The notes beneath the pieces were generated by a model that saw nothing but the letters and a program-made list of their open reading frames with translations, searched no databases and was not told the DNA's origin. Below are positions 3,660 through 44,077 of a stretch of 64,000 nucleotides of DNA, in pieces. Source of the DNA: Candidatus Bathyarchaeota archaeon (GTDB lineage Archaea; Thermoproteota; Bathyarchaeia; Bathyarchaeales; Bathycorpusculaceae); NCBI GenBank assembly GCA_963767735.1, contig CAVYES010000005.1, forward strand, positions 352,001-416,000. The letters are read 5' to 3'. The first letter of the stretch is position 1; every line of letters begins with the position of its first letter. Both the position numbers and the translations under genes were made by a program.

Positions 3660-3705
3660 TGGACGGGGGGATTTGAACTCTCAGCAAAGTGGAGATGTCA
3701 CCCGC
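3660..3705 (-). repeat. Degenerate tRNA-Ala 3'-end copy plus 19-bp conserved site (att-like site A1)
   Basis: tggacggggggatttgaac-tctcagca-aagtggagatgtcacccgc. Confidence 0.8.
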
Positions 3706-3773
3706 GATTTCCTTTTTTTTCTAAATTTTTGTTACTGAAAACCGTTTGAACTACGTTTGAGGGAACATACCCT

Positions 3774-3792
3774 AAGTGGTGGTGTCTCCCGC
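3774..3792. repeat. 19-bp conserved site, B-type copy
   Basis: aagtggtggtgtctcccgc. Confidence 0.75.
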
Positions 3793-3849
3793 ATAATCCC
3801 CTCTTTTTCTTTTTTATGTTCCCAATTTTCTCCGAAGTTTTTGTCTCTT

Positions 3850-5280
3850 CAGTAGATGGAAAAGTAGCTTAAGGGTTTGATATTAGTATTTTAGTGCAAA
3901 CAATTGAGATCTTGCGCTCAGACGATAAAGCGTAAATCAAAAGAACGAAAAGTTTCAAGCAAAGTCTTCAAGTTCACAGCCAACCTGCTCAACAACTACC
4001 TGCAGTTTCCAGCAGCCAAAAACAGCCTCTACACCAGCAGTCATATCAACCAATGTCTAATCCAACTCTCGCTCTCCCAAAGCTACGCTGAAGGCGGCTT
4101 ATTAGACCTCTCAGAAAAATGCGCTATGCCAAACAAGGTTCCCACGGGAAGAACCTTCAGAGGAAGAATAGAGCGTTTAGCTGAGAAGCAGATTCGAGAC
4201 TCACTTATAGAAGCAAACGATCAGGTTCTACTCATCCTACGATGCTATAGCATCTTCAGACGCAAAGCAGTGGTTGCAATTGATTATACCAGGCAACCGT
4301 TCTACGGAAACCCAGACGCTAAGAATGTGATAGGCGGCAAACAGGAGAGAGGAACAAATTGGGGCTACACGTATGCCAGCATGGATATTGTTGAAGCCGG
4401 AAGACGATTAGCAATCTACTCTATTACCGTAAACCAGTTCAGCGAGAAAGCACAGGTTGTAGAGAAACTACTCTTTGAAGCAAAGGCAAGAGGGGTACAC
4501 ATCAGTATAGTGCTGCTTGACCGCGCATTCTTCACAGTAGACGTCATTACTATGCTCAAGAGTTTAGGCGTCTATTTCATCATTCCAGCGGTTAAGAATG
4601 GCACAGTCAAAGAAGCAATGATGAACTATGACCAGAAGCAGCGAGCCAAACGTTTCACTTTGGGCAATAAAAGAAAAAGCGTCAGCTTCACTCTCTACAT
4701 CTATAAACGACCAGCAGGGCAGTTGCCGAAAAAGAAGAAGCTTACTGTTTGTGATCTCTATTTTGGTTTTGCAACGAATCTTCCAAGGTCTTTGGCTCTT
4801 GCGTTGCCGTCGTCTATTCCTTCTGAGTACAGGCGGAGGTGGGGTATTGAGACTGGTTATCGTGTGCAGGATAATGCTCAGGCTAAAACTACAAGCACCA
4901 ACTACAAGCTTAGGCTGCTCTACCAGATGGCTTCTGTGCTGCTCTACAATGTTTGGCATTACGCTAACTTTCTGCTCTGCAGGGCTTTGAAGAAGGCGTT
5001 TGATAGGCCAGTTTTGACGTTGACGCGGTTGGCTGTGCATTTTGAAGGCTTTGTTATTGGCGGGTTAGGGCCACCTCGACGGTAAGCATTCTCAGATGCA
5101 GTTCGAGGGACTCGATCGCGTAGATCAGACCCTAAACTCCGCCACTTTCTCAACTATTCAAGCCTTCAGGATATAAAACTGTTCAATGAAAAAGCTTGCT
5201 TAGAACGCTCCGATCGAGGAATTGTTATGATTACGATGTGAATGAAGCATCAGAATCATAAACTACTTTTCCATCTACTG
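3850..5280 (+). mobile_element. Insertion sequence, ISH3/IS4-like family, apparently intact
   Basis: Perfect 18-bp terminal inverted repeats (cagtagatggaaaagtag at 3850-3867, reverse complement at 5263-5280); 5-bp target duplication ctctt; empty site visible in the paralogous leader near 8856. Confidence 0.95.
3904..5085 (+). CDS. DDE transposase (ISH3/IS4-like)
   Basis: VAIDYT, VLLDRAFF, YRRRWGIETGYR motifs. Confidence 0.92.
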   Translation: MRSCAQTIKRKSKERKVSSKVFKFTANLLNNYLQFPAAKNSLYTSSHINQCLIQLSLSQSYAEGGLLDLSEKCAMPNKVPTGRTFRGRIERLAEKQIRDSLIEANDQVLLILRCYSIFRRKAVVAIDYTRQPFYGNPDAKNVIGGKQERGTNWGYTYASMDIVEAGRRLAIYSITVNQFSEKAQVVEKLLFEAKARGVHISIVLLDRAFFTVDVITMLKSLGVYFIIPAVKNGTVKEAMMNYDQKQRAKRFTLGNKRKSVSFTLYIYKRPAGQLPKKKKLTVCDLYFGFATNLPRSLALALPSSIPSEYRRRWGIETGYRVQDNAQAKTTSTNYKLRLLYQMASVLLYNVWHYANFLLCRALKKAFDRPVLTLTRLAVHFEGFVIGGLGPPRR

Positions 5281-5508
5281 CTCTTTGAGCTAAATTTATA
5301 TAAATTAGTTATTTATTATAAGATAGACTAATTTTTGTAATAAAATAAGCGAAAATGCCACTATTTACCCAAGTTTTATAAGGAAGTTGGCAAGATATGG
5401 GGCTTTCGGGTAAGAAACATGAATGCTATAAATGCTCTCGCCCAAAAAAGAGTTTTTTTATGTATTTATGCTTCTTGCTAAAAAAAATAAAATTGAAGGA
5501 AAAGAAAA

Positions 5509-8430
5509 ATGCAAAATATAAAAGGTAAAACTTTGGCTATTTTGATTGCAGCAATTTTAACAATTTCCATAGGAGCTTCAACAGCATTAATGCCGAGCGC
5601 TAGTGCACATACACCTGCATGGCAAATTCCAACTTTCGCCTACATTTTTGCGGAACCTAACCCTATTGGCGTCGGTCAGACAATACAAGTTTACATGTGG
5701 CTTGACCCTGTTTATGGAGCGGCTGGCGGAACAGTTGCAACTGTTGGCACTAATGGTTACACCGCCAGTACAGCATTGCTAGCAAACGACTATAGATTCG
5801 ATAACTACAAGCTTACCATCACAGCGCCCAGCGGTGCAGTCTCAACAGAGACTTGGGCTGTAGTAACAGATCCAACCTCAGCACAGGAAACGTCATTTAC
5901 CCCCAGCGCCGCCGGCACGTACAATTTCACCTTTAGCTTTCCGGGACAGACCTACGGAGTAAATGGTGACGGTTTTGCAGGTTCACCTCTGATTAACGAT
6001 ACATATCTGCCAAGCAGTGCATCAACAACGCTTACTGTTCAGTCATCGCCGATTCCTGCGGCTGTAGGTAGTTCTCCGCTTCCAACTGTTTATTGGCAAA
6101 GCCCTGTTTACGGTGAGAACACTAACTGGTATTCGATTACGTCAAACTGGCTAGGTACAGGTTCACCGGTTCCAGCAGGGTATACTAGCGACACACTGTA
6201 CCATGGTGACAACCTAGGACCTCTGACTTCTCATATCATGTGGACAGGCCAACTTCAAGACGGAGGAGTTGTTGGAGGAAACTATTTTGCTAATGATCAG
6301 GGCGTCGGCTTCTTCGAGGGTTCTTCATACCAGCCAAGATTCGGCAATCCGATACTAATTGACGGATACCTATACTACACAGAACCAGCAGCATTCACAG
6401 GTTCCACAAGTGGACCAACAGTCTGCGTTAACCTGCAAACAGGGCAACAAATTTGGAGCAGCACTACCATACCTGCACTATCATTCGGTTACGAATATGA
6501 CCTATGGGACCCCGACCAGCACGGATCTTTTCCACCAATCTTAGTCGCAGCCAATTCAATTACAGGCAACTGGCAACTTTATGATGCATACACAGGAGAC
6601 GCATTGTTCAACGTAACTGGTGTTCCGTCAGGCTCGGCGACAATGGGTCCAAGCGGTGAAGTGTTGAGATATGTCTTTAACAACGCAGGCACAGTCGCAA
6701 ATCCACATTGGTATTTGGCTGAGTGGAACATGTCCAAACTATGGCAGTACGATATAATCCCATATACCGGCGCTGGAAGCACATCACCAGACCCTATAAA
6801 TGCAACAAACGGAGTTCTCATTCCAACGCTGCCTATTCCAATTCAAGGCGAGTATGGTACCGCTCCAAATGGAGCAAGTGTTCTTGTTCCCTACGGTTCG
6901 ACAATAACAGTCAACGCTAACATTCCTATTGACGACACTGCCCTTGCCCCTGGAACGACAACGCCTATCGGACAAATCAATGGTGATTCTTTAACTACTT
7001 ATGACTGGAACGTCTCGGTACCTTGGGTAAATACTATGCCTCCGCCATATTCCACTGTTGGCGTCACAGGACAATTAATACCTCCAGCTCCGGGAGCAAA
7101 TCCAGTAACGGTAGAGTTTGTTAATTATGGCGATGTCATGCTTTGCATAAATGGTTCCCTACCTACTGGTTTCGACAGGACCTATTCTGGCTATCCAGAG
7201 CTTCCATGGACAATGTTTACTGTCAACCTCAACGCATCTATGGGCGCAATCGGTTCGGTACTGTGGATGCAGACCTATAATCCGCCATTAGGCAACCTTA
7301 CTGTTCTGTGTGACGGAGCCGACTTCCAAACTCGTGTGTTTGTTTTGAGTTATGAGGAAACTATGCAATGGGTAGGATACAGTCTGACAACGGGTGCACT
7401 GCTATGGGGTCCAACTACTTCCTTACCTAACGACTTCAATTATTATAGTACATCATATACTTATGCAAGTAACCTGGCTTACGGCAACATCTACTTCATG
7501 GGGTATGCAGGAGTACTTTACTGCTTTAGCGATTTGACTGGAAAAATACAGTGGACCTACGGTAACGGTCCAATGGGGTCCGACAACAGTACTAACGCCG
7601 GCTTTAACACGCCTTACGGTGATTATCCAACCAACATAGAATCCGTTGCTGATGGAGTAGTATACATATCTACGGAAATGCACACTATCAGCGACCCGAT
7701 TTACAAGGGCTGTACAGCAGCCGCTATTAACGCTACCAACGGACAACTAATCTGGGGTCTTTCCGATTACTGCAGCGAGTGGACCGCCCCAGGCAGTTCT
7801 TGGGTTGTCGCAGATGGCTATGCAACATTCATGAACGGTTACAACAACCAAATCTACAGTGTCGGCAGAGGACCCAGCGCAACCACAATACAAGCACCAC
7901 AGACTACTGTCACAGCAGGGACCAACGTGGTAATCCAAGGTACAGTGATGGATAAGTCCGCTGGCACGCAGCAGAGCCAACAGTTAGCTGACTTTCCAAA
8001 CGGGGTTCCATGTGCATCAGATGCAAGCATGCAGGCTTGGATGGGCTACGTTTACCAGCAGCAACCAGAGCCAACCAACTTCACAGGCGTAACAGTAACA
8101 TTGACCGCTATTGATCCAAACGGCAACTTCGTAACTCTCGGCACAGCTACAACTGATTCAAGCGGCTTATACCACTACACTTGGACCCCTCCGAGTATTC
8201 CAGGAAACTACCTCGTCACAGCAACATTCGCTGGCACCAACGGCTATTGGGGATCAAGGGCTGAAACTGCCATGACAGTACAAGGAGCAACTTCTGCTAC
8301 TGCGGTGCCTACAGCTACTCCGGCTTCTGTCGCTAATGTGTACTTTGTTCCTGCAATCGCTGGCTTATTCGTTTTAATCATCATAGTCCTTGCCTTAGTG
8401 ATCTTAATGATGCTCAGGAAACGACCATAA
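5509..8430 (+). CDS. Large membrane-anchored surface protein with PQQ-like beta-propeller repeats and Ig-like domains (copy 1)
   Basis: Signal peptide; repeats CVNLQTGQQIW, YSLTTGALLWG, FSDLTGKIQW, AINATNGQLIW; many N-x-S/T sequons; C-terminal TM helix plus RKRP. Confidence 0.85.
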   Translation: MQNIKGKTLAILIAAILTISIGASTALMPSASAHTPAWQIPTFAYIFAEPNPIGVGQTIQVYMWLDPVYGAAGGTVATVGTNGYTASTALLANDYRFDNYKLTITAPSGAVSTETWAVVTDPTSAQETSFTPSAAGTYNFTFSFPGQTYGVNGDGFAGSPLINDTYLPSSASTTLTVQSSPIPAAVGSSPLPTVYWQSPVYGENTNWYSITSNWLGTGSPVPAGYTSDTLYHGDNLGPLTSHIMWTGQLQDGGVVGGNYFANDQGVGFFEGSSYQPRFGNPILIDGYLYYTEPAAFTGSTSGPTVCVNLQTGQQIWSSTTIPALSFGYEYDLWDPDQHGSFPPILVAANSITGNWQLYDAYTGDALFNVTGVPSGSATMGPSGEVLRYVFNNAGTVANPHWYLAEWNMSKLWQYDIIPYTGAGSTSPDPINATNGVLIPTLPIPIQGEYGTAPNGASVLVPYGSTITVNANIPIDDTALAPGTTTPIGQINGDSLTTYDWNVSVPWVNTMPPPYSTVGVTGQLIPPAPGANPVTVEFVNYGDVMLCINGSLPTGFDRTYSGYPELPWTMFTVNLNASMGAIGSVLWMQTYNPPLGNLTVLCDGADFQTRVFVLSYEETMQWVGYSLTTGALLWGPTTSLPNDFNYYSTSYTYASNLAYGNIYFMGYAGVLYCFSDLTGKIQWTYGNGPMGSDNSTNAGFNTPYGDYPTNIESVADGVVYISTEMHTISDPIYKGCTAAAINATNGQLIWGLSDYCSEWTAPGSSWVVADGYATFMNGYNNQIYSVGRGPSATTIQAPQTTVTAGTNVVIQGTVMDKSAGTQQSQQLADFPNGVPCASDASMQAWMGYVYQQQPEPTNFTGVTVTLTAIDPNGNFVTLGTATTDSSGLYHYTWTPPSIPGNYLVTATFAGTNGYWGSRAETAMTVQGATSATAVPTATPASVANVYFVPAIAGLFVLIIIVLALVILMMLRKRP

Positions 8431-8667
8431 AAAGGATTAACAACCACAATCTCTCTTTCCCCTTTTTTTGTCTTAAAAGCACGTTGAAACATGAGGGCTG
8501 AGAAGGCTCTGGTTAATCACGATTTACGCTCTTGCTCAGTATCGTGGTGGCGCATTTGCATTTGCCTTCTTTTCTCCTTTAAAAGTTCCAGAGCCTCAAA
8601 AACCCCCAATTTATCTGATGCCATCAATCACTAATTGTTTTTTTAAAAAAAAAGTTTGATCTTCAAA

Positions 8668-8715
8668 TGGACTGGGGGGGATTTGAACCCCCGCCAAAGT
8701 GGAGATGTCACCCGC
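8668..8715 (-). repeat. Exact 26-bp copy of the tRNA-Ala 3' end plus 19-bp site (att-like site A2)
   Basis: 8668-8693 is identical to 12335-12360; aagtggagatgtcacccgc at 8697-8715. Confidence 0.92.
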
Positions 8716-8785
8716 AAAACCCTCTTTTTTCTAAATTTTAGTTACTAAAAAATCATTTGATCTACTGTTCGGTGGAACATACCCT

Positions 8786-8804
8786 AAGTGGTGATGTCTC
8801 CCGC
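8786..8804. repeat. 19-bp conserved site, B-type copy
   Basis: aagtggtgatgtctcccgc. Confidence 0.8.
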
Positions 8805-9084
8805 GCAATCCCTCTTTTTCTTTTTCATGTTCCCAATTTTCTCCGAAGTTTTTATCTCTTTGAGCTAAATTTACATAAATTAGCTATATTCATAAAAATG
8901 AACTAATTTTTGTAATAAAATAAGCGTAAATGCCACTATTCACCTAAGTTTTATAAGGAAGTTGGCAACATATGGGGCTTTCGGGTAAGAAACATGAATG
9001 CTATAAATGCTCTCGCCCAAAAAAGAGTTTTTTTTATGGATTTATGCTTCTTGCTAAAAAAAATAAAATTGAAGGAAAAGAAAA

Positions 9085-12081
9085 ATGCAAAAAATAAAAA
9101 GTAAAACTATGGCTATTCTTATTGCTTTATGCTTAACACTTTCAATGTCAGCTTCAATGATGCTTATACCAAACGCTAGTGCACATACACCTGCATGGCA
9201 GATTCCAACGTATGCCTACATTACTGGGATACCTAGCACTATAGGTGTCGGTCAGACAATAACTGTTTACATGTGGCTTGACCCTGTTTACGGAGCAGCT
9301 GGCGGAACAAGTGCCGTTATTTTAACGAATGGCTACACAGCCAGCACAGCATTGACAGCAAACAACTACAGATTCGATAACTACAAGCTTACCATCACAG
9401 CGCCAAACGGTGCAGTCTCAACCCAAACTTGGGCTGTTTGCTCAGACCCAACATCATCCGTGTTCACATCCTTCACTCCCACACAAGTCGGCACATACAA
9501 TCTAACCTTTAACTATCCAGGACAAGTCTATGGAGCAAATGGCAACGGCTACTCTGGTTCACCATTGGTTAACGATACTTACCTGGCAAGTAGCGCATCA
9601 ACAACACTTACTGTACAATCAACACCAATCGCCGCGCCCGTAACTAGCGAACCATTACCAACAAATTACTGGGCACGCCCAATATACGGTGAGAACACCA
9701 ACTGGTACACGATTTCGTCAAACTGGCTAGGCTCAGGTATGCCACAAATAGCAGGCTATACTAGCTCCTCAGTATACCACGGTGATGCAGTAGGATCTCT
9801 GACGGCTCATATCATGTGGACACTGCCGATTCAAGCGGGTGGAATTGTCGGAGGAAACGAGTACACTACTGCTACGGGAGTTGGCTACTTCGAGGGCTCT
9901 TGCTACATAGGAAGATTCTCCAATCCGATAATTGTAGACGGATACCTATACTTCAACGCACCATCATCATTCACGGGAGGCGCTGTTGGACCATTCGAGT
10001 GCGTTAATCTGCAAACAGGACAAATTGTTTGGTCTTCTAACGCTATACATTCGGTATCATTCGCTTACATCTATAACCTTTGGAATGGTGAACAGCACGG
10101 AGTTTTTCCGCCAATTCTGGTTTCAACTGCAGGAGGCGGTCTCACCGGTATGCCTTCGATGTGGACGCTTTGGGATGGATTCACAGGAGAGCAATTGTTC
10201 AACGTTACTAATGTTCCAGGATTTGCAGCACAAACAGGCCAAACCGTAGGAGGCCAGCCAGCCACGGCTCTCACAACCTCGACAGTAGCGGGCCCAAGCA
10301 GTGAAATATTAAAATATGTCTTTATGAACGACGGCACCGCCGCGAATCCTCAATGGTATTTGGCTCAGTGGAACTCGTCCGATCTATGGCAATACGATGT
10401 AAATCCATACACTTTCGGTGGAAGTCTGTCACCATCAATTGTTAATGCATCCAACGGGGTCCTTGTTTCATCTGCAGGCATTCCTCAAACAACTTTGGGC
10501 ACCACAGGTACCACGCCAACGGGAGGAAGCGTTTTCATCCCCTATGGTTCCACAATAACAGATAATGCATTCATCCCTCTTAACGCCACAACTATATACC
10601 CGGAGAACCTTGGTGCACGAACCACTTTTGACTGGAACGTTTCCGTACCATGGATTAACAACATGCCAATGCAGCCTACCTACCCCAGCCTCGGGGGGAC
10701 AGGGTCACCAATACCAACATTTATGCAAGGAACCGCTATCGGTGATTTCGCAGCAGGCGGAACATGTCCTGTAACGATAGTTGCAGCTAACTATGGCGAT
10801 GCTATGCTTTGCAGAAACGGTTCTCTACCAAGCGGTTTCACGACAACTATGGCTGGATACCCACAACTTCCCTACACCCTCTTCCTTGTCAACCTCAACG
10901 CAACTGTGGGTCCAATCGGTTCAATACTATGGATGAAGAACTATAACCCGCCAGCAGGAAACCTTACTGTCAGCATTCCCGCAGTCGACTGGCAGACACG
11001 TACCTTCCTCGAATATTATGACGAACTAGAGGAATTTACTGGATTCAGTCTGACTACAGGCGCACAGATATGGGGTCCAACTGCACCTATGGTTCCCCTG
11101 CAATACTATGATATTGGTTACGGCATTCTCGGTGCAGCGGCTTACGGCAACTACTACTGCGATAACATGGGAGGCGTATGCTACTGCTACAACGACTTGA
11201 CTGGAACTCTAGAGTGGACCTTCGGCAACGGTCCATCCGGCTCAGACAACAGCACTATGAGCTTGAGTTCTCCTTACGGTGAATATCCACAATACGTTGG
11301 ACCCATTTCTGGTAACGGAATAGTATACCTGATGTCCAATGAACACACAGTCACAGACCCGATTTACAAGGGCGCATTTTTAGCCGCTCTTAACGCCACT
11401 ACAGGACGAGAAATATGGACTCTTTCATGCTACGGCAGTATGGCTACCCCCGCACTCTCAGACGGCTATACAACATTCCTCAACGGTTACGACATGCAAA
11501 TCTACACTGTAGGCAGAGGACCCAGCGCAACCACAGTGCAAGCGCCACAGACCGCTATCACAGCAGGCAGCAACGTAGTAATACAGGGCACAGTGATGGA
11601 TACTTCCGCTGGCACACAACAATCAACGGTGAAAGCTGATTTTCCAAGTGGCGTTCCATGCGCATCTGATTCAAGCATGACTGACTGGATGGGCTACGTT
11701 TACCAGCAGCAAGCAGAACCAACTAACTTCACAGGTGTAACAGTAACATTGACAGCTATGGATCCCAACGGCAACTTCATCACCCTCGGCAGCGCTACAA
11801 CCGATGCAAAAGGCAACTTCATCTACTCATGGCAGGCTCCAAGCGTCCCAGGGAAATACACCGTCACCGCGACATTCGCTGGCACCAACGGTTACTGGGG
11901 TTCAAGCGCAGAAACCGGCATGACCGTACAAGCACCTTCGGCTACTTCGGCACCTACAGCTGCACCAGTATCGGGTCTAGCAACAATGTCAGGCCTAACT
12001 ATGGGAATCGCTGTTGTAATAATCGTTATGATAATTGCAATCGCCATAGTAGGCTTACTCCTGCTAAGAAAAAAGCCGTAA
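9085..12081 (+). CDS. Large membrane-anchored PQQ-repeat/Ig-like surface protein (copy 2, paralog of 5509..8430)
   Basis: Shared AHTPAWQIPT, YMWLDPVYGAAGGT and WMGYVYQQQ blocks; signal peptide; C-terminal TM helix plus RKKP. Confidence 0.85.
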   Translation: MQKIKSKTMAILIALCLTLSMSASMMLIPNASAHTPAWQIPTYAYITGIPSTIGVGQTITVYMWLDPVYGAAGGTSAVILTNGYTASTALTANNYRFDNYKLTITAPNGAVSTQTWAVCSDPTSSVFTSFTPTQVGTYNLTFNYPGQVYGANGNGYSGSPLVNDTYLASSASTTLTVQSTPIAAPVTSEPLPTNYWARPIYGENTNWYTISSNWLGSGMPQIAGYTSSSVYHGDAVGSLTAHIMWTLPIQAGGIVGGNEYTTATGVGYFEGSCYIGRFSNPIIVDGYLYFNAPSSFTGGAVGPFECVNLQTGQIVWSSNAIHSVSFAYIYNLWNGEQHGVFPPILVSTAGGGLTGMPSMWTLWDGFTGEQLFNVTNVPGFAAQTGQTVGGQPATALTTSTVAGPSSEILKYVFMNDGTAANPQWYLAQWNSSDLWQYDVNPYTFGGSLSPSIVNASNGVLVSSAGIPQTTLGTTGTTPTGGSVFIPYGSTITDNAFIPLNATTIYPENLGARTTFDWNVSVPWINNMPMQPTYPSLGGTGSPIPTFMQGTAIGDFAAGGTCPVTIVAANYGDAMLCRNGSLPSGFTTTMAGYPQLPYTLFLVNLNATVGPIGSILWMKNYNPPAGNLTVSIPAVDWQTRTFLEYYDELEEFTGFSLTTGAQIWGPTAPMVPLQYYDIGYGILGAAAYGNYYCDNMGGVCYCYNDLTGTLEWTFGNGPSGSDNSTMSLSSPYGEYPQYVGPISGNGIVYLMSNEHTVTDPIYKGAFLAALNATTGREIWTLSCYGSMATPALSDGYTTFLNGYDMQIYTVGRGPSATTVQAPQTAITAGSNVVIQGTVMDTSAGTQQSTVKADFPSGVPCASDSSMTDWMGYVYQQQAEPTNFTGVTVTLTAMDPNGNFITLGSATTDAKGNFIYSWQAPSVPGKYTVTATFAGTNGYWGSSAETGMTVQAPSATSAPTAAPVSGLATMSGLTMGIAVVIIVMIIAIAIVGLLLLRKKP

Positions 12082-12334
12082 AAACATAACAATAAAACAA
12101 CCACAATCCCTCCTTCCCTTTTTTTAGTCTTTAGAAAGCAGCGAGAAAAGAAGTGGCTGAGAAAGCTCTGGTTAATCACGATTTACGTAATCGCTCAGTA
12201 TCGTGATAGGCATTGCATTTGCCTTCTTTTCTCCTTTAAAAGTTCGAGAGCTTCTGCAAACCCCAAATGCTTTGGAATGTCCGCTAATCTCTCAATTCTC
12301 TTTTTTTAGGAAAGGAGGCTTAATATTTTCAAAG

Positions 12335-12408
12335 TGGACTGGGGGGGATTTGAACCCCCGACCTCTTGAGTGCAAGTCAAGCGTTCATACCAGCTGAACT
12401 ACCAGCCC
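12335..12408 (-). tRNA. tRNA-Ala(TGC)
   Basis: Full cloverleaf: acceptor GGGCTGG/CCAGTCC with G3:U70, anticodon stem CTTGA/TCAAG with loop CTTGCAC, T-loop TTCAAAT. Confidence 0.96.
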
Positions 12409-12542
12409 TAGCTTTCCAATTGATTAACCGTTCAATGATATTTAGCTTTTGTTCGTGCAAAAGCAGGGCTAACGCAGAAAAATAATAAAAAACATAAAAA
12501 AAATAATTAATAAACTGGAGATTTATGGGTTACGCGGTTAGC

Positions 12543-12689
12543 TTAATATCGTCTTGGCGATCTTGCTGGTCGTTTCTTAGCAAAGCATTCTCGGCAATAA
12601 ACTGGCCTGCTTGGGTCAGGTTTGAATGGAACTTCACATTCCTTTCCACATTCAGCACAAGTTGCCTTATGCATTTCCTTCTCGGACAC
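12543..12689 (-). CDS. CxxC-x17-CxxC domain small zinc-binding protein
   Basis: Manual translation MSEKEMHKATCAECGKECEVPFKPDPSRPVYCRECFAKKRPARSPRRY; below the ORF-track cutoff. Confidence 0.88.
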   Translation of the reverse strand: MSEKEMHKATCAECGKECEVPFKPDPSRPVYCRECFAKKRPARSPRRY

Positions 12690-12909
12690 TACTTTTCAAC
12701 TCCTTCTATCTGTTTATTGTGCAAAACTGCTTCTTGCACCACGATTTATGCAACGCATTGACGCATATAAAATTTATCGTCAAACAAAGAGCCCTAACCG
12801 CTTTGCTAAAAGCTTGCTCCTGATTGGCTTTTCAAAAAGCAGCTTACAATTTTTTTAAAAAAGTTATATGCTAAAGCGCTGCATAAGTCATCAGATTGGA
12901 GGCTTAAAT

Positions 12910-13395
12910 TTGGAGTTAAAAACTGTTAAAATTGACCCCCCGAAAGACTGCAACATCATTTTAGGCATGGCTCACTTCATAAAAACCGCTGAAGACCTCT
13001 ATGAAGCCATGGTTAACTCTGTTCCAGACATTAAATTTGGCATAGGTTTCTGCGAGAGTTCAGGACCATGCTTGGTTAGGCATGAAGGAAACGATGTAGA
13101 ACTGCGACAACTGGCAGCTGAGAAAGCCTTTGAAATTGCATGCGGGCACAGCTTTCTCATTTACCTAAAAAATGCTTATCCGTTAAACGTTCTCGACAAA
13201 ATCAAGAAGGCACCCGAAGTATGCACCATTTACGCCGCCTCCGCTAACCCGCTCGAAGTAATAATTGCTGAAACCGCTCAGGGAAGAGGCATCATCGGCG
13301 TTGTTGACGGCTCAAAAAGTAAAGGCATAGAAACGGACGCTGACATCAAGGAGCGTCGGCAGTTCCTGCGGAAAATCGGCTACAAACTAGGCTAA
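12910..13395 (+). CDS. Adenosine-specific kinase family protein (DUF355)
   Basis: [51 protein letters not shown]. Confidence 0.88.
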
Positions 13396-13401
13396 CAACA
13401 A

Positions 13402-14370
13402 TTATTTTTCTGAAGCTATTATGCCCTTCAACAGGTAGTCGTCGATGTTTCCGCCAGATACAACTATAGCAACGGTTTGCCCAATGAATGAATCATTGTT
13501 TTCCAAAAGCATTGCGACGCCTGCCACGCCCGAACCTTCCACTGTTTGCTTTTCGTTTTTCCAAAGCAGATAAACCGCTTGCCTAATCGTTTCTTCTCTC
13601 ACCAGCATTACTTCGTCAACGTACTGTTGCGCTAAGTCGAATGTGATGGAGCCTTTCTCGATGCCTCCCGATAAGCCTTCAGCAATGGTGTATCGTTCAT
13701 GTCTGTGTGGAGGAACAATTTTGCCAGCCTTCAAAGACTCGTACATGATAGGCACAGCTGCGGATTGTACCCCGATAACCTGCACGTTAGGTCTTAGGCT
13801 TTTAACAGCTACGCTTATGCCTCCAATCAAGCCTCCTCCACCAACCGGCACAACAACAACGTCAACATTTGGGAGTTCCTTGAGAATTTCTAATCCGATG
13901 GTTCCGTGTCCAGCCACGATTAACTCGTCATTGTAGGGGGAAATGTAGAGGCGACCAGTTTGTGTCGCAATTTCTTTAGCTTTCCTTTCAGCCTCAGGGT
14001 ACGTTCCACCGAACAACAAAAGGTCGGCGCCGTACTGTTTTATGCCATCCACTTTAATTTTGGGCGTATTGGTGGGCACTACGATTTGCGCTGAAAAGCC
14101 AAGTTTTTGGGCACCATATGCTACTGCTTGACCATGATTCCCCGCTGAAGCCGTCACCACCCCTCTGGCTTTTTCTTCAGGTGAGAGGCTCAGCAGCTTG
14201 TTTATTACTCCGCGAATTTTGAAGGAGTGCGTTACCTGCTGGTTTTCCAGCTTCAAAAAAACGTTGCAATGGCACTGCTCGCTTAGAAACTTTGAACGAG
14301 CCAAAACGGTTGAAACAGCGTATGGTGCAATAGTTTTTTGCGCTTGCTCGATATCTCGAAGTGTAACCAT
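13402..14370 (-). CDS. ilvA: Threonine/serine dehydratase (PLP), no regulatory domain
   Basis: LKLENQQVTHSFKIRG, ASAGNHGQ, VPVGGGGL, VSGGNID. Confidence 0.88.
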   Translation of the reverse strand: MVTLRDIEQAQKTIAPYAVSTVLARSKFLSEQCHCNVFLKLENQQVTHSFKIRGVINKLLSLSPEEKARGVVTASAGNHGQAVAYGAQKLGFSAQIVVPTNTPKIKVDGIKQYGADLLLFGGTYPEAERKAKEIATQTGRLYISPYNDELIVAGHGTIGLEILKELPNVDVVVVPVGGGGLIGGISVAVKSLRPNVQVIGVQSAAVPIMYESLKAGKIVPPHRHERYTIAEGLSGGIEKGSITFDLAQQYVDEVMLVREETIRQAVYLLWKNEKQTVEGSGVAGVAMLLENNDSFIGQTVAIVVSGGNIDDYLLKGIIASEK

Positions 14371-14479
14371 GATTTCATCGCCTAAGAAACCGTTAACTTA
14401 CCTGTTAAGTTAAGAACCATAAACTATTTTAGCTTACTTAAGAATCAAACCTTAACAGCGTTACGTTACTGGTGTTTTT

Positions 14480-24971: not shown

Positions 24972-25157
24972 TCAATTCACCGTTAGCTACCTTTCTTTTG
25001 GAATCGTATTGTTAATTAAAATTTACTTGGTTCCTTTAAAAATATTAACTAATTTACTGAGGTAGACAACTAAAAACATAGAGTTTCTTAAGTTAAAAAG
25101 TGTATTGATTGGAGACAATAAACTGCAAAACCAGAGGATAAGTAATTATCCTATAGG

Positions 25158-25176
25158 AAGTGGCGATGTCTCCCGC
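25158..25176. repeat. 19-bp conserved site, B-type copy
   Basis: aagtggcgatgtctcccgc followed by aaacccctttttctt, as in other copies. Confidence 0.8.
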
Positions 25177-25287: not shown

Positions 25288-26397
25288 CTATAGTTTTTTA
25301 AAGTCTTCCAATGCCTTCTTGAGATCCATTGCCGCGTTGAAAGATAGATCGTCAGTGTCGTATTCAATTCTTTTTAAGCCCTTAAGGTTTGGAGGCAGAT
25401 CTACTTTTCTCTCAACCAACAGAACAACCTGCGTATTGTATTTCAGATAGGCCGCATCGATTTCAGAGGTTACATTTGAATTAAGGATGTAGATTCCGCT
25501 GTACCTTCGCTCCTGTTCAGCGGCAGCGATGTTTATTATTGCACAATCACAGTCTTGCATCAACCCGAATTTATTTTCAGAAATTGGCACAGTTGTTTCT
25601 TCTTTATCGCCCATGACGTAGTCATAATGCAGAAAATCCAACATTTTCTTCACCTGGTCAGAAACTTGGGTGCTGCTATTAGATATGAAGACACGAGGTT
25701 TCAGACCTTCTTTTTGGGGCTCATTTGGCGCTCTTTCAACAAAAGGTGCTGTTTTAGTCACTTGGTCGTCAATTACATATGCAGGTGGCGCCTCAAAGGT
25801 GACTGGTAAGCTTGCAAGGTTTTTAATCCTGGCAGCATAGCGCTTATTCATTAGTTCATTTATGCGTAGCAGCTGAAGTTCAATTCCATTTTCCAATGCT
25901 GTTATTTTTCCCTCTAGAGCGGTGTCATCAAAATCGGGTGCTACAATTATGCCCTTTTGTGCTCTTCCGTTTACTAGCACTTTGACAAAGGCTTCAACAT
26001 CAGCCAAGCGGACAGGATCGGATTGTTTAATCAAAAGAGGTTGACCTCCCTCGGTAAACCCGCTTACGCCTGTAGCTGGGTCGCTTGGTTTGCCATTGAA
26101 TTTTTTTATTACCCGGTCTTCGAAGTCACTGGAGGAAACTCCGCCATTTAGACTCTTTTCATTCCTCCTTTTCTTAAAAACAAATACAAAAGTGACAACA
26201 ACAACTACTGCTACAACCGCTATGATTCCGCCAATAAGTAATAAGGCAGAGGTACTTCCAAGTATTCCTGCTTTGGTTGGGGTTGGCTGTGTCGTTGAGC
26301 TTGGTGTTAATGTTTGGCAATAGGATATTTGCGGAAGGACTACAACTAAAAAAAAGAAACACGCTATAATAGTGGCTACTAGGAATTTTTTATTCAT
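25288..26397 (-). CDS. Membrane-anchored protein with degenerate Mrr-like domain and C-terminal TIR-like nucleotide-binding domain
   Basis: Signal peptide plus TM helix; DFEDRV...GVSG...IKQS...KGIIVA (Mrr-like); RVFISNS...DCDCAII...NVTSEIDAA...VVLLVERKVDLPPNLKGLKRIEY (TIR-like). Confidence 0.72.
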   Translation of the reverse strand: MNKKFLVATIIACFFFLVVVLPQISYCQTLTPSSTTQPTPTKAGILGSTSALLLIGGIIAVVAVVVVVTFVFVFKKRRNEKSLNGGVSSSDFEDRVIKKFNGKPSDPATGVSGFTEGGQPLLIKQSDPVRLADVEAFVKVLVNGRAQKGIIVAPDFDDTALEGKITALENGIELQLLRINELMNKRYAARIKNLASLPVTFEAPPAYVIDDQVTKTAPFVERAPNEPQKEGLKPRVFISNSSTQVSDQVKKMLDFLHYDYVMGDKEETTVPISENKFGLMQDCDCAIINIAAAEQERRYSGIYILNSNVTSEIDAAYLKYNTQVVLLVERKVDLPPNLKGLKRIEYDTDDLSFNAAMDLKKALEDFKKL

Positions 26398-26625: not shown

Positions 26626-26673
26626 GTGTAGAGGGTGGATTTGAACCTTTACCGAAGTGGAGATGTCACCCGT
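26626..26673 (-). repeat. Degenerate tRNA T-arm fragment plus 19-bp site (att-like site A3)
   Basis: gagggtggatttgaac-ctttaccg-aagtggagatgtcacccgt. Confidence 0.78.
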
Positions 26674-26723
26674 AATCCCATTTTCTTGCGCAGGTTCTAT
26701 GCCGTCTTTTTTTCCTTTGAGGC

Positions 26724-27143
26724 TTAGTTTGATGACCTATTTCGTCGGTTTTCGATATATATTCGTTGTCCGTTCAGCATATATCCGATTCCCAGTAAGA
26801 TGAGAATGAACTCGCCGGCTGTAACGGCAGGTGGAGGGGCAACTGTGAAGAAAAACTTTGCTTGATCGGCGGGCGCGGTTAAGAAAATTAGTGCAGCGTC
26901 GATTACCGCCAAGACGCCAGCGACTCTTGGTCTTCGCCACAGAGAGACCAGCCCTGCAATCGGAAGCAACAACCCCACTGTCACAAAAAATACTGCGAAC
27001 CAAAGGGTCCGTATCTCGTTCTCGCGGGTCTCAAATCCCAATGGAGTTAACAGGAAGCCCACAACGAATCCCACCACAAACAAAACTGCCAATATCCGCT
27101 TTGTGTCCCCCAAAGAAGCCTTTGCGTCAAAAAATGAAGCCAT
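26724..27143 (-). CDS. Hypothetical membrane protein (about 4 TM helices)
   Basis: 139-aa hydrophobic ATG ORF. Confidence 0.65.
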   Translation of the reverse strand: MASFFDAKASLGDTKRILAVLFVVGFVVGFLLTPLGFETRENEIRTLWFAVFFVTVGLLLPIAGLVSLWRRPRVAGVLAVIDAALIFLTAPADQAKFFFTVAPPPAVTAGEFILILLGIGYMLNGQRIYIENRRNRSSN

Positions 27144-27549
27144 AAAAAATCACTTAAAGAATCTGTAAGTTAATCACTAATTAAAGCGTTTAGATGCGAT
27201 ACTACTAACGAGATGTAAGTGATAGCTGTAGGGGAACAGCTTGAATTAAAAGTTGAAATCACATTGACTCCTTGTGCGACTTGTTGCGAACCTCCTCTTC
27301 AAAACGCAAAATGGCCGAGACTATGAGTTACTGCTACCACACCTGATGAGATTCTAGCTTTAGGAAAGGCTTGCTGGCAAAAATACGCTGAAGCGACTTT
27401 TAACGGTTTGACAATGCATTTCTACCGAAAGCCCAAACGTTTCGGAATCTTCAAAAATATAGAGGATAAGTCCCAGACTATGGGGATAAGTAATTATAAT
27501 TCGTAAACCGTATTTTTAGATTAAACCGCTTCCAGTCGTGGTTCTCTAT

Positions 27550-29679: not shown

Positions 29680-29685
29680 ACTTTC

Positions 29686-31410: not shown

Positions 31411-31545
31411 GCCGGGGTAGCCTAGCCTGGCTAGGGCGCCAGACTCATAATCTGGTAAAAACACACAATCCAGATGAGAAATCTGGAGACTTAGGGGCTA
31501 AACGTCCAAAGCCAGAGGTCGCGGGCTCGAATCCCGCTCCAGAAA
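31411..31545 (+). tRNA. tRNA-Met(CAT), elongator-like, with two introns (about 31450-31480 and 31489-31517); 3' acceptor strand does not pair, so possibly a pseudogene
   Basis: GCCGGGG 5' strand, D-arm, CCAGA-CTCATAA-TCTGG after splicing, BHB-like junctions; T-loop CTCGAAT; 3' strand TCCAGAA instead of CCCCGGC. Confidence 0.75.
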
Positions 31546-31728
31546 CAGAATTAACGTCTGTTTCGGCGAACGGCACCAATTCGAGCCTAACTACCCACAA
31601 AATCGGCAAACCAAGCAAATTGATAACACCATTGATAACAAAACCGCAAAAATTGCTCGACCGCAAAAGCTAACAGTCGAAGACAGGAAAAATTTATTTT
31701 TCGCAATCTTAAATGAAGGTAGACAGCC

Positions 31729-32554
31729 ATGACACAGAATGAAGACGAATTCTATAAATCCTTTAACGATTGGCTAATCAATGAAAAAAAGATAGGCTCT
31801 AAAGTCGCTTACGAATATGTGCGCTTGAGTCGGCAATTCATGGCTAAAGCTAAAGATTTGACTGGCATTGATGGTATAAACATCGAAGACAAAATAAACG
31901 ATTTTCTAAACATTGAAAACCCCAATAGCTACAGAAACAACTTAGCAGCGATAAAGAAACTTTTTGAATTTGTCGGACAGCCCCAGCTTATGCAGAATTT
32001 CAAATAAAAGGTAATCATGCCAACTTTCAGCATAAAAACACCCAGCTTGGAAGATATGGTAAAATTCGGCAAGGCAATTGAGAATGAACAGATTCACGTC
32101 TATTATATTCTTGGAGTAGTTAGCGCAATCCGTCCAGAGCACTTATTGAGATTAAGGGTAAAGCTGTTTGACAAAAACAACAACATGATTAATACATGGA
32201 TGAAAACTTTCGGCAAAAAAACTTTTTCTTCTCATTCTACACGGCAGAGACTAAAACATTGATTGAGGAATTCATAAGCCATATACCTGATAATCAAGTG
32301 CTTTTCCCGATTGGCAAACGCTATATTTGCAAAGAATCGAAAAGGCATCTAACAAAAGCGGTGTTAAAATCGTGCCTAAAATGATGCGTAAATTCACTAC
32401 TAACTGGTTTAGAAGGCATGGCATGATTGAGGAAGACGTTAACGTTATTACTGGTCACACTCCGCAATCAATCATAGCTAAATATTACATGGACGTTTCA
32501 CGCATTCATGAAGAATATGACCGAGCCACAACAGACTTGAAACTTCTTTCCTAA
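31729..32554 (+). pseudogene. Tyrosine recombinase/integrase, archaeal tRNA-targeting (SSV-like) type, disrupted
   Basis: Joined fragments contain SAIRPE, PKMMRKF, ITGHTP and AKYY catalytic motifs; in-frame TAA at 32005-32007 and two frameshifts. Confidence 0.85.
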
Positions 32555-41501: not shown

Positions 41502-41522
41502 ACAGCAGGTGAAGCGAGTGGC

Positions 41523-42611
41523 ATGGCTGAAAACCTAAAATTCAGAAACCCCGAACTTGCACACAATATAGCGTCCAAAATCCAAAGTTTGGCGCCGAAG
41601 GCTGGAAAAATAAAAATCTGCCATGTCTGCGGGACCCACGAGTGGACAATTACGCATTTTGGTTTGCGCAGTCTTTTACCCCAGAACGTTGAGGTTATTG
41701 CTGGTCCCGGCTGTCCCGTTTGCATTGTGCCAGCGGCTGAAATTGATGAAGCCGTACAGCTAGCCCAGATGGGCATCGTGGTTACATGTTTCGGTGACGT
41801 GCTGCGAGTGCCAGGAAGCAAAATGTCGCTTCTAGAAGCTAAAGCGGCTGGCGCTGACGTCAGAATTGTATATGCAACTTCCGACGCGGTGGAAATGGCA
41901 AAACATGAGCCTCAGAAGCAGTTTGCGTTTTTCGCTGTAGGTTTCGAAACCACGGCTCCATCAACAGCTGTTGAAGCACTCGGCAACCCACCAAAAAACC
42001 TCAGTTTTCTCGTTTCTCACCGTTTGATTCCCCCAGCTATGGAGCTGCTGCTCGGCGTGGGCGACTTGGAGATTGACGGTTTCATTGCGCCAGGACATGT
42101 GAGCGCCATTATCGGACTTAAGCCCTATGAGCTGTTTCCTAGGGTTTATCGGATGCCCACAGTTGTGGCTGGTTTTGAGCCTATTGATGTTTTGATGTCT
42201 GTTTACATGATTGTGAAGCAGTACAGCGAAGGGTCAGCTAAGCTGGAGAATGAGTATCCGCGTGTGGTTAAGCCTGAAGGCAACCCAAAGGCGCTGGAAA
42301 TAATGAATCAAGCATTCACTGTTACTGGCGGCAACTGGCGTGGAATCGGTAGGCTTCCAGACTCCGCATTGCAGCTACGTGAATCACTTGCAGATTACGA
42401 TGCACGATTAAAGTTTAACGTTCATGTAGAGCAGGGCAAAGATATCCTGCTTGGCTGCGAATGCCACCTCGTCATCATCGGAAAAATCAAGCCCGCCCAG
42501 TGCCCCATGTTCCTCAAAGCCTGCACACCCGAAAAACCCGTCGGCGCATGCATGGTCAGCAGCGAAGGCACCTGCAGGGTCTGGGCAAAAAACGTAGCCG
42601 TCGAGGCGTAG
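41523..42611 (+). CDS. hypD: Hydrogenase maturation protein HypD
   Basis: HVCGTHE, GPGCPVC, GFETT, GACMVSSEGTC. Confidence 0.96.
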   Translation: MAENLKFRNPELAHNIASKIQSLAPKAGKIKICHVCGTHEWTITHFGLRSLLPQNVEVIAGPGCPVCIVPAAEIDEAVQLAQMGIVVTCFGDVLRVPGSKMSLLEAKAAGADVRIVYATSDAVEMAKHEPQKQFAFFAVGFETTAPSTAVEALGNPPKNLSFLVSHRLIPPAMELLLGVGDLEIDGFIAPGHVSAIIGLKPYELFPRVYRMPTVVAGFEPIDVLMSVYMIVKQYSEGSAKLENEYPRVVKPEGNPKALEIMNQAFTVTGGNWRGIGRLPDSALQLRESLADYDARLKFNVHVEQGKDILLGCECHLVIIGKIKPAQCPMFLKACTPEKPVGACMVSSEGTCRVWAKNVAVEA

Positions 42612-42858
42612 GTCGCATTTTTTGTGGTTGAAAATTGGCACAAAAAATAGGTAGGGCTATAGGTGGGCGTTGCTGGTTCAGGGTTTGTTTTGAGTTGATT
42701 TTTTGGTTCAGCGTTTAAATTCTTGGCGGCTTGATTGGCGCCTCTACAAATAATGAGGCTTTTGACTGACGAAGCAAATTTGGGACATCTAGACAATCCA
42801 AATAGACTTTAGACCTCAACCTACGCACCCTGCGTAGAAAAAATAAACTGCAAACATG

Positions 42859-43926
42859 TTAGCAGATTCTCGGCACTGGATCGCCTATGGGCCGTGCGAT
42901 TATCCTTTTGCCGCCGACCAAGGTTTGCATTGCCACGCCTTTAAACTGAGTTGTAGTTTCGCCGATTATCTGAGCGTTTTTGCCCTCATCCGTCTGCTTC
43001 AAAAACTCCAGTGCTTCTTGCGCCTTTTCCGCGACGACGCCGATTATGTATTTGCCCTCATTTCCAACTTCCAACGGGTCTAACCCAAGCATATCGCATG
43101 CTGTTTGAACGTCCTTTCGAATGGGAACTTTGTCTTCATATGTTAAAATGCCAACTTTGGATTTTTCAGCCCACTCATTAAGGGCATCAGCCAAACCGCC
43201 ACGAGTGGGATCTTTTACAGCAATAACCCCCCCTATTTGCGCGAATAATTGCTGAAGCATGCGATTTAATGGTCTTACATCGGATTTTATTTCGCTTCCA
43301 AAAGTCAGGCCCTGCTGAGCCGAAAGCACAGCTAATCCGTGGTCGCCGATTGTGCCTGTTAAGATGATTTTGTCGCCTGCCACCAAATTTGAGTCAAGTG
43401 TCCAGCGCGAGGTGACGCTTCGGTATTGCCTCGCGACTTTGATGTTGCTGTCTAAGTCCGGAGTTCTTTTGCCGATTCCTGAAACATTCATGACCAAACC
43501 GCCTAAGCTGCCCTTCTCCACCACCTTCGTATCGCCCGTAACGATGCCGACGCCTGCTTCAATGCAGGTTTCCCGCATACTCACCAAAATCCGCTCCAAA
43601 TCCGAAAGCAGCAAACCTTCCTCCAAAATAAACCCGCAAGCCAAAGCATAAGGCATCGCGCCCATAGCCGAAATATCGTTAACCGTGCCTGAAACTGCCA
43701 AGCGTCCAATGTCGCCGCCTGGGAAAAAAATTGGCTTAACTGCGTGGGAATCGCTCTTAAACACTATGTCGCCGATTACTGCAGCGTCATCCATCGCCTC
43801 TAGCGGCACCTCAGCAGCGTTGCCTATACCGCCGAAATATTTTACAATGTAGTTTTTGACCAAGTTATGCATGACTGTGCCGCCCGCGCCATGCAGCATC
43901 GTGATTTTCTCGTTTTTACCAGACAT
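42859..43926 (-). CDS. hypE: Hydrogenase maturation protein HypE
   Basis: HGAGG, FFPGGDIG, TGDTKV, DPTRGG, C-terminal PRIC. Confidence 0.96.
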   Translation of the reverse strand: MSGKNEKITMLHGAGGTVMHNLVKNYIVKYFGGIGNAAEVPLEAMDDAAVIGDIVFKSDSHAVKPIFFPGGDIGRLAVSGTVNDISAMGAMPYALACGFILEEGLLLSDLERILVSMRETCIEAGVGIVTGDTKVVEKGSLGGLVMNVSGIGKRTPDLDSNIKVARQYRSVTSRWTLDSNLVAGDKIILTGTIGDHGLAVLSAQQGLTFGSEIKSDVRPLNRMLQQLFAQIGGVIAVKDPTRGGLADALNEWAEKSKVGILTYEDKVPIRKDVQTACDMLGLDPLEVGNEGKYIIGVVAEKAQEALEFLKQTDEGKNAQIIGETTTQFKGVAMQTLVGGKRIIARPIGDPVPRIC

Positions 43927-44028
43927 TCCAAAACCGCCTTTTTAACGAGTGCAATAGCAAATACAATACAGGCAAACATATACGTTTTAGCTATAAGCAA
44001 CATCCGAATGGAAAAACGGTCAACTTTG

Positions 44029-44077
44029 CTAGGCAGAGAAAGATTCGAACCTGTACGTAAGTGGAGATTTCACCTGC
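44029..44077 (-). repeat. Degenerate tRNA 3'-end fragment plus 19-bp site (att-like site A4)
   Basis: ggcagagaaagattcgaac-ctgtacgt-aagtggagatttcacctgc. Confidence 0.72.

Follow-up and report, generated by a model that had tools for sequence, protein, structure and literature searches.

Integrative elements that enter tRNA genes by means of a tyrosine integrase are recognised by a direct repeat of the 3′ part of the tRNA, by the intact tRNA rebuilt at one junction and by the integrase gene adjoining it; their locus content varies between relatives, and both tandem arrays and integrase-less remains are found. In the scheme of sublocations that Williams drew up in 2002, the crossover reportedly falls in the symmetric T-arm. 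Non-autonomous att-flanked elements that are mobilised by a related integrase, the cis-mobilisable elements (CIMEs), are known from the accretion of streptococcal integrative and conjugative elements. Archaeal integrated elements often lack an integrase, presumably by loss, and tandem integration occurs among them (as far as the accessible part of PMC8371274 describes them); integrons too have been reported in Archaea (accessible part of 10.1101/2022.02.06.479319), as have the ‘suicidal’ tRNA-targeting integrases of the Sulfolobus spindle-shaped virus (SSV) type from hyperthermophilic archaea, which often trap their elements (accessible part of PMC7253208). Here we describe a stretch of DNA, hereafter the window, of 64,000 nucleotides from Candidatus Bathyarchaeota archaeon (assembly GCA_963767735.1, contig CAVYES010000005.1, positions 352,001 to 416,000), in which a 19-bp motif, AAGTGGAGATGTCACCCGC, recurs seven times at the junctions of small integrated units.

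The system to which these units belong is of the broad kind of tyrosine-integrase integrative elements at tRNA genes, and is neither an integron nor an SSV-type element nor a split tRNA. We consider it likely that the motif represents a conserved arm on the element side of the attachment site (attP), shared by a family of such elements found throughout the class Bathyarchaeia, and that its seven copies are junction scars, left by a tandem pair of units at tRNA-Ala(TGC), a composite insert of 2.3 kb whose target is not a tRNA and a single event of older date, most of these units being elements that have lost their integrase. With the described tRNA-targeting elements the family shares the direct repeat of the tRNA 3′ part, the intact tRNA at one junction, the varying locus content, the tandem arrays and the integrase-less remains, and some of its units have an integrase next to a junction. 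It differs in that one 19-bp arm, at a fixed offset of 8 nt, serves many tRNA and non-tRNA cores across a whole archaeal class, and in that many units are only 1–5 kb long and hold a single gene. As far as could be found, this combination of a single arm motif and a fixed offset across so many cores is new: the literature yielded no description of the arm, 14-mers of the motif gave one irrelevant primer match, and the accessible parts of PMC10848311, PMC11705971 and PMC8371274 do not mention it; the supplements of the Bathyarchaeia provirus papers may list att sites.

The motif matches the window at 3687, 3774, 8697, 8786, 25158, 26655 and 44059, with zero to three mismatches and always on the plus strand, against no match in 100 dinucleotide shuffles; its repetition is real and well above chance. 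Its core is palindromic (GGWGAT-ATCWCC) and occurs in two forms. The A form (GGAGATGTCACC core; 3687, 8697, 26655 and 44059) is preceded at exactly 8 nt by GATTYGAAC, the reverse complement of a tRNA T-loop, in all four cases; the B form (GG[T/C]G[A/G]TGTCTCC core; 3774, 8786 and 25158) lacks this upstream T-loop in all three. An earlier note on this DNA, made from the sequence alone, had pointed out the seven co-oriented copies and the fixed spacing of the A form, both of which are borne out, and a T-rich tract after most copies, which holds for the five that are followed by a C-rich stretch and then at least five T residues and fails for 26655 (four T) and 44059 (none). By ARAGORN and Rfam together, the window has just two tRNA genes: tRNA-Ala(TGC) at 12334–12408 (minus strand) and an intron-bearing tRNA at 31415–31540. 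Rfam, at gathering score or E≤1, leaves the motif sites unmatched and adds only chance matches to the two tRNAs, so that a C/D-box RNA or another known RNA was rejected as a candidate.

The first four copies belong to the locus of tRNA-Ala(TGC), which spans 3660–12408 and comprises the following features:

3660..3686, minus strand: degenerate tRNA 3′ fragment, from the T-loop to the 3′ end, Ala-like with an indel; outermost scar of the array, at the distal end of unit E1
3687..3705, plus strand: A-type motif, 0 mismatches, 8 nt from the T-loop, followed by eight T
3774..3792, plus strand: B-type motif, 3 mismatches, with a T-run downstream and GGGAACATACCCT-type sequence upstream
3845..5280, plus strand: insertion sequence (IS) inside unit E1, with a DDE transposase open reading frame (ORF) at 3904–5085 (393 residues)
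5509..8430, plus strand: E1 cargo, a 973-residue PQQ-like beta-propeller / Ig-like surface protein, paralogue of the E2 cargo
8668..8693, minus strand: exact 26-nt copy of the tRNA-Ala 3′ end, at the E1/E2 junction
8697..8715, plus strand: A-type motif, 0 mismatches, followed by a T-run
8786..8804, plus strand: B-type motif, 2 mismatches, followed by a T-run
9085..12081, plus strand: E2 cargo, a 998-residue surface protein of the same family as the E1 cargo
12082..12333, no strand assigned: conserved non-coding, tRNA-proximal arm of the E-type unit, with an inverted repeat
12334..12408, minus strand: tRNA-Ala(TGC), intact, the integration target at the head of the array

Self-comparison resolves the locus into two tandem homologous one-gene units of ~3.7 kb, E1 and E2, whose aligned blocks are 86% (3660–3849/8668–8860), 73% (5281–6938/8856–10589) and 69% (6645–8693/10290–12360) identical. 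Read along the plus strand, each unit begins with a reverse-complemented tRNA 3′ fragment, the A motif and, ~70 nt on, the B motif, and continues through a promoter-like region and a ~985-residue surface-protein gene to ~250 nt of non-coding DNA that reach the next tRNA 3′ copy; the GGGAACATACCCT-type sequence at the second unit (8786) includes a small inverted repeat, GTTCGGTGGAAC. The tRNA-Ala 3′ end at 12335–12360 is identical to 8668–8693 at 26 of 26 positions and, because the tRNA gene itself is intact, 8668–8693 is the duplicate. Two tandem homologous units, separated by an exact fragment and bounded on the outside by a degenerate one, argue for two successive site-specific insertions into one tRNA gene. 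No integrase is present in E1 or E2 among the ORFs and database matches of the window, nor is there an integrase ORF at 12082–14400.

The same locus is occupied differently in related genomes (labelled G below), five of which (G003, G013, G106, G004 and G052) are syntenic with it upstream of tRNA-Ala. From tRNA-Ala to the conserved distal flank the distance is 9.8 kb in this genome (G000) and about 0.2–0.45 kb in G018, where the motif is absent and the site is empty. The interval measures 5.6 kb in G052, with one tiny degenerate junction of motif and fragment; 6.4 kb in G106; likewise 6.4 kb in G004, with an E2-like unit plus its motif; and about 11.6 kb in G003, with two motif-plus-fragment junctions, one of them matching its tRNA-Ala at 22 of 22 positions. 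The tRNA-Ala locus is, then, an insertion hotspot whose content varies among relatives.

Public sequencing runs (X1–X3, DNA; X14, RNA) were available as Logan contigs only, and the parts of the locus that these do not cover are uninformative. The IS sits between the motif pair of E1 and its cargo gene, and one contig of X1 joins 3844 to 5281, that is, without the IS; its insertion is thus polymorphic in a natural population. Apparent skips of ~3.6–3.8 kb in such contigs were set aside as cross-mapping between the paralogous E1 and E2 genes. The RNA contigs match parts of surface-protein genes only, with many differences, and two antisense ORFs (8244–8492 and 11892–12179) overlap the large genes and look spurious.

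Two further copies bound or lie within an insert whose attachment site is not a tRNA gene:

25136..25149, plus strand: left copy of a 14-bp direct repeat, GGATAAGTAATTAT, the core of the non-tRNA attachment site
25158..25176, plus strand: B-type motif, 8 nt after the 14-bp core and followed by five T, at the left end of the insert
25288..26397, minus strand: cargo, a 369-residue protein with a weak TIR-domain match below the Pfam cut-off
26633..26654, minus strand: tRNA 3′-like fragment, from the T-loop onward, with no partner tRNA in the genome
26655..26673, plus strand: A-type motif, 1 mismatch, within the 2.3-kb insert
27330..27452, plus strand: C-terminal remnant of a tyrosine integrase, 41 residues
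27484..27497, plus strand: right copy of the 14-bp direct repeat

The insert was compared with 19 loci from relatives, aligned around the ferredoxin-like gene at its right. In three of them (G018, G046 and G052) the flanks abut with a single 14-mer, a precise empty site, which establishes that the window carries an insert of 2,335 bp (25150–27483). The flanks lie 0.2–0.4 kb apart in six further loci, and only the right flank is found within the locus in the remaining ten; since several of these ten (G003, G041, G013 and G020) and one of the six (G009) carry element-side sequence, the site is occupied there too. The integrase remnant, which reads towards the right core copy, is 58.5% identical to a full-length integrase of this genome (E=3e-10), and the insert also holds a 139-residue ORF. 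A motif placed at such a non-tRNA core ties it to the end of the integrated element and not to tRNAs as such. Adjoining the attachment site, a 132-residue ORF (24573–24971) matches only the first ~85 residues of the profile of MFS transporters and may be a truncated gene or one with a mis-called start.

At these junctions insertion proceeded by conservative site-specific recombination at a short inverted-repeat core. Identity between the core copies starts 3–5 nt before the T-loop, at the end of the 5′ strand of the T-stem, and runs to the tRNA 3′ end, or else consists of the 14-mer; the motif is always element-side, at the junction with the displaced core copy. We propose that the core would most often be a tRNA T-arm and sometimes another small palindrome, for example GGATAAGTAATTATCC; that, after integration, the motif would be found 8 nt from the duplicated core, at whichever junction is remote from the intact target; and that the integrase, when present, would lie at the opposite junction. 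The circular form would then read integrase side, core, 8 nt, motif and T-run. The palindrome GGWGAT-ATCWCC may be bound by a dimeric protein that helps to build the recombination complex, either the integrase itself or a putative directionality or bending factor, and the T-run may end transcription, be it of the integrase gene in the circle or of read-through into the element.

The last of these roles could also be thought to account for the motif as a whole. We compiled an unbiased set of 30 distinct motif instances, from the whole genome and from relatives’ loci found by the motif alone. In this set a TTYRARY heptamer lies exactly 8 nt upstream in 12 instances (background 0.0025 per site), and a run of at least five T lies within 30 nt in 26 (background 0.08). 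The frequency of the T-run favours a reading of motif and T-run as a transcription signal, that is, a terminator or insulator at element ends or the 3′ untranslated region or terminator of the integrase in the circle, with no part in recombination; so do the resemblance of the C-rich stretch and T-run to the sequence directly after surface-protein stop codons, and the position of the motif about 100 nt downstream of the integrase stop in junctions that read integrase, core, motif and T-run. We regard this as unlikely. A terminator needs neither a fixed distance to the core, as seen in the 12 instances at exactly 8 nt, nor a conserved palindrome; the integrase of the complete unit described below (L119) reads away from the motif, and no significant fold was found, the minimum-free-energy folds of six sites as single-stranded DNA having z-scores of −1.4 to +1.2. 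As the commonest variants break the pairing at the third position and the sites fold no better than shuffles, a purely RNA-level role is unlikely in general. One subfamily has another conserved sequence in place of the T-run, and the motif is thus more conserved than the sequence adjoining it. Two other candidates were rejected: coding sequence across the motif, in which the frames stop in the T-loop and are, by eye, not conserved, and RNA pairing between A-type and B-type copies, which is a trivial result of the shared palindrome.

In this genome, a search allowing 4 mismatches gives 15 matches, seven of them in the window and four others with the context of the family (C4:339518, C6:349419, C6:597005 and C7:326941, by contig), and a profile search gives about 20 copies, degenerate ones included; the motif family is thus small and clustered in the window. 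Among related genomes, the motif alone (1 mismatch) occurs in 18 of 41, including 14 of the 24 of the genus, with a maximum of 11 copies and near zero for a reversed-pattern control. Across 185,579 species-representative genomes, the pattern of T-loop, N9 and motif recurs in at least 118 stretches. Eighty loci were listed: 74 bear titles that name Bathyarchaeota or Bathyarchaeia (including MCG-6), one is from an uncultured archaeon and five are from other taxa, which are probably binning errors. The distribution is thereby class-wide; the earlier note had proposed such a scan of related Bathyarchaeia. The consensus of these loci keeps GGGATTTGAACCC, the spacing, AGTGGAGATaTCACCCG, the C-rich stretch and the T-run, and the tRNA acceptor parts vary by site. 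A further copy stands on a virus-like contig of 12.3 kb that carries a gene for an HK97-type capsid, 11 nt short of the contig end; on the viral contig L040 both motif and fragment are present, with no integrase in the 500 nt beyond them.

Among these loci (labelled L), one complete unit, integrase-less units and short arrays can be delimited by the same rules:

L119, 2,179 bp: complete unit with tRNA-Arg, a 287-residue tyrosine integrase, a methyltransferase, the motif and the fragment
L129, 1,696 bp: tRNA-Arg, a 404-residue secreted protein, the motif and a fragment identical at 22 of 22 positions
L100, 1,038 bp: tRNA-Leu and a membrane protein
L082, 1,011 bp: a flavodoxin-like protein (named by eye)
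L122, 4,967 bp: a 1,328-residue protein
L077 and L126, 1,531 bp and 2,825 bp: arrays with a junction of motif and fragment on each side of one gene (the name given to the L077 cargo is likewise a reading of its sequence by eye and not a search result)

L129, L100, L082 and L122 are single-gene units with repeats of 22/22 to 26/26 and varied cargo. A direct repeat of the tRNA 3′ part next to an intact tRNA is also found in G003 (at tRNA-Ala and tRNA-Cys), L129, L122, L119 and L100. Among 82 instances in all, 12 show the fragment twice within a locus of at most 8 kb (no more than 3 mismatches in 22), and in eight of these (7 loci) the additional copy is on the side predicted for the target tRNA.

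Tblastn finds homologues of the L119 integrase in L127, L122, L116 and L036, where the genes are 5′-truncated. In the first three, some 60 nt separate the last codons from the core in reverse complement, after which come 8 nt, the motif and a T-run, and L036 has the same layout with a diverged motif. G013 carries a full-length integrase of 443 residues, with an N-terminal zinc-ribbon-like motif, that stops 55 nt before tRNA-Ala; its family is found in 31 of the 41 relatives, in many cases as C-terminal fragments, one such fragment adjoining tRNA-Cys in G003, within a 1.6-kb unit that ends at the motif. Full-length members number at least five in this genome; a 439-residue gene at C9:58687–59871 is an example. 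The family and its remnants resemble the SSV-type systems in being archaeal, tRNA-targeting and often trapped. They differ from them in that the core lies 55–60 nt past the integrase stop and not inside the reading frame, and in that the remnants are 5′-truncated genes and not int(N) and int(C) halves at two borders. A second, weaker-scoring integrase clade (the L031 type) lies directly downstream of tRNAs in 8 of the 41 relatives.

Other integrases and possible remnants were seen alongside these. A clade of ~420–450 residues (L067, L068, L069, L071, L072 and L075) has its start, in every case, no more than about 100 nt past a tRNA (Gly, Val and others), with a conserved arm, TTTTGGGTTCARAACC, and a TATA-like box ahead of the gene; in L070 (this genome, C5:83006) and in G012 its integrase follows a tRNA 3′ fragment only. 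Within the window, the intron-bearing tRNA at 31415–31540 (Rfam, 29.1 bits) is followed ~0.8 kb downstream, at 32327–32554, by a 75-residue fragment of PF16795 (archaeal phage integrase; 27.6 bits), so that, from these two matches, 31415–32554 looks like another decayed integration by a different type of integrase. Near the right end of the window, 63230–63418 (minus strand) encodes a weak C-terminal integrase fragment (63 residues, 35% identity, E=1e-4). A candidate 15-kb element, from a truncated tRNA-Arg and integrase at C6:581970 to the motif at C6:597005, was rejected, its fragments being too diverged to pair.

The integrase-less one-gene units may, as a tentative addition to the reading of the motif as an attP arm, be living non-autonomous cassettes moved by integrases encoded elsewhere in the genome, each bounded by core, 8 nt and motif on one side and, opposite, by a conserved arm; their insertion would produce growing arrays downstream of tRNA genes. 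The ~950–1050-residue surface proteins carried by E1 and E2 belong to a very large family of paralogues, of which this genome has at least eight full-length copies (two in the window, six at other loci), with matches in 100 of 101 genomes of the genus and more than 1,300 matches overall, and promoter and terminator regions are common to several of the copies. The ~250-nt arm recurs in E1 (8431–8667), E2 (12082–12333), the G004 orthologue and three further paralogue modules (contigs C8, C2 and C4), and in each case it stops at a recognisable or decayed T-loop core; because all of these share the arm up to that core, the unit that was propagated already lacked an integrase. The arm contains an inverted repeat, AGGCTCTGG ... 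CCAGAGCCT, about 85 nt apart, and the compensatory substitutions and a compensatory 1-nt deletion between copies suggest a structured RNA or a pair of protein-binding sites.

Insertion in trans is inferred mainly from the exact 26-nt repeat at 8668–8693 beside sister units that are ~30% diverged and share both non-coding arms: a repeat identical at 26/26 positions to the living tRNA, between units only 69–86% alike, fits a recent insertion of E2 without an integrase of its own. The single-gene units L129, L100, L082 and L122, the arrays L077 and L126 and the at least five full-length integrases of the family in this genome point the same way. Against this, the exactness of the 26-nt copy could be maintained by gene conversion from the tRNA; 5′-truncated integrase remnants beside cores are common, as at tRNA-Cys in G003, and speak for decay in place; integrase loss and tandem integration are already described for archaea (accessible part of PMC8371274); no cassette was found to recur elsewhere in near-identical form, the E2 cargo being 79% identical to its best paralogue in protein sequence; and no circular junction appears among the public-run contigs. 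On this balance, mobilisation in trans is a minority prospect, and a Bathyarchaeia-wide mode of gene capture, in which minimal one-gene units moved by trans-acting integrases would form arrays behind tRNA genes and at a few other palindromic sites, is doubtful.

Units of this kind can be compared with the CIMEs and the integrons. Like CIMEs, E1, E2, L129, L100, L082 and L122 are att-bounded at both ends and have no recombinase of their own, adjoin related elements in a tandem array at a tRNA-type hotspot and retain the non-coding arms of both sides; unlike CIMEs, they have an archaeal host and no conjugation context, show ordinary integrase decay in several units, and would be mobilised in trans only by inference. 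Their similarity to integrons lies in the arraying of short units, each closed by a related recombination site, and in the variety of the accessory cargo. They differ from integrons in an array headed by a tRNA gene and not by attI and an IntI-type integrase; in cargo with its own promoter-like regions in either orientation; and in sites that contain the duplicated target core, which attC sites do not, with no attC-like fold of the single strand.

The cassette idea of the earlier note must accordingly be divided. A shared att-arm-like sequence at different tRNA 3′ ends is borne out across elements; relatives do have empty sites, both at tRNA-Ala (G018) and at the 14-bp core (G018, G046 and G052), and the bounded genes are not invariant, the tRNA-Ala locus being empty or otherwise filled among them. 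That the copies follow a tRNA-linked layout is right for the 26/26 repeat at tRNA-Ala, and the B-type copies, which have no link to tRNAs at all, mark element ends at other cores. The absence of an integrase from every unit holds for E1 and E2 and gives way at the 2.3-kb insert, with its remnant at 27330–27452. Small one-gene cassettes exist in so far as integrase-less, att-bounded units and arrays do, but many of the ‘cassettes’ are decayed autonomous elements, as the truncated integrase genes beside their cores indicate. The proposed integron-like function finds no counterpart in an integron-type integrase or attI at the array head, in an attC-like fold or in a common orientation of the cargo, and the search it called for among circular junctions turned up no public-run contig that closes a unit.

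The seventh copy stands alone:

44024..44050, minus strand: tRNA 3′-like fragment without a partner, at a synteny breakpoint
44059..44077, plus strand: A-type motif, 2 mismatches, no T-run

It is flanked by an AIR-synthase-like gene and a TRAM-domain gene, adjoining a ribosomal-protein operon. A query across the site finds matches to both of its halves in 54 of 61 genomes of the genus; in nearly all the listed ones, these matches fall on separate contigs or a long way from each other, and to the left homology ends at the 44024–44050 fragment. An att-type scar thus lies exactly at a synteny breakpoint, and from this arrangement we read 44059 as an old solitary scar at a rearrangement breakpoint rather than a promoter element of a conserved gene. 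Across 44030–44210, the AIR-synthase-like and TRAM/ribosomal-protein sides are adjacent in this genome only, among the relatives listed.

This copy also bears on a quite different view, that the motif is an operator for a transcription factor of the host, or a small RNA or split-tRNA leader of the cell. Its palindromic core, the position of 44059 about 130 nt upstream of the AIR-synthase-like core gene and, on the minus strand, the passage from A-type copies to a tRNA 3′ part and the tRNA’s own T-run would all suit it. Yet the genes that flank the motif are not conserved and its loci are empty or differently filled in relatives, 44059 marks a synteny breakpoint, Rfam matches are limited to the two tRNAs, no 5′ halves with a complementary trailer are found, the acceptor strands implied by the fragments are not tRNA-like, and the genome has only about 20 copies. 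The view is already largely refuted, and we hold it to be highly improbable. The specific candidate of a split-tRNA leader or small RNA was dropped: there is no tRNA 5′ part before any motif copy, and tRNA-Ala is intact.

Several observations sit less easily with the attP reading that we prefer. Only one of the four A-type fragments, 8668–8693, has a partner tRNA in the genome; for those at 3660, 26633 and 44024 a second copy was looked for there and none was found. In an element of G003 at tRNA-Gly, which has an integrase of the second, weaker-scoring clade together with a surface-protein paralogue and a distal motif, the fragment does not match the tRNA. The insert at 25150–27483 is composite, with a tRNA-type junction (26633–26673) nested inside it, and the order of events cannot be reconstructed. 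No Logan contig closes a unit into a circle or bridges an empty tRNA-Ala site, and no excised or circular form was seen among the public-run contigs searched. The integrase reads away from the tRNA in L119 and towards it in G013, so that the motif has no one fixed role in integrase expression. Finally, the co-occurrence of the motif with one clade of tyrosine recombinases, which the earlier note had put forward, does not discriminate: the G013-type family is present in 31 of 41 relatives and the L031 type in 8, against 18 for the strict motif pattern.

The mobile elements of the Bathyarchaeia, an abundant and uncultured group, are poorly delimited. With an arm motif at a constant distance from the core, the borders of elements, relic scars and hotspots can be set to the base in any Bathyarchaeia genome, and recent arrivals can be recognised: large surface proteins and a TIR-like protein here, a methyltransferase and redox proteins in other genomes. 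Core plus motif also constitute a concrete substrate for the first biochemistry on a Bathyarchaeia integrase. If it is true that integrase-less units are mobilised in trans, they would represent a new archaeal mechanism of gene capture, a functional counterpart in Archaea of integron cassettes or of CIME accretion that would drive the turnover of surface-protein and defence genes.

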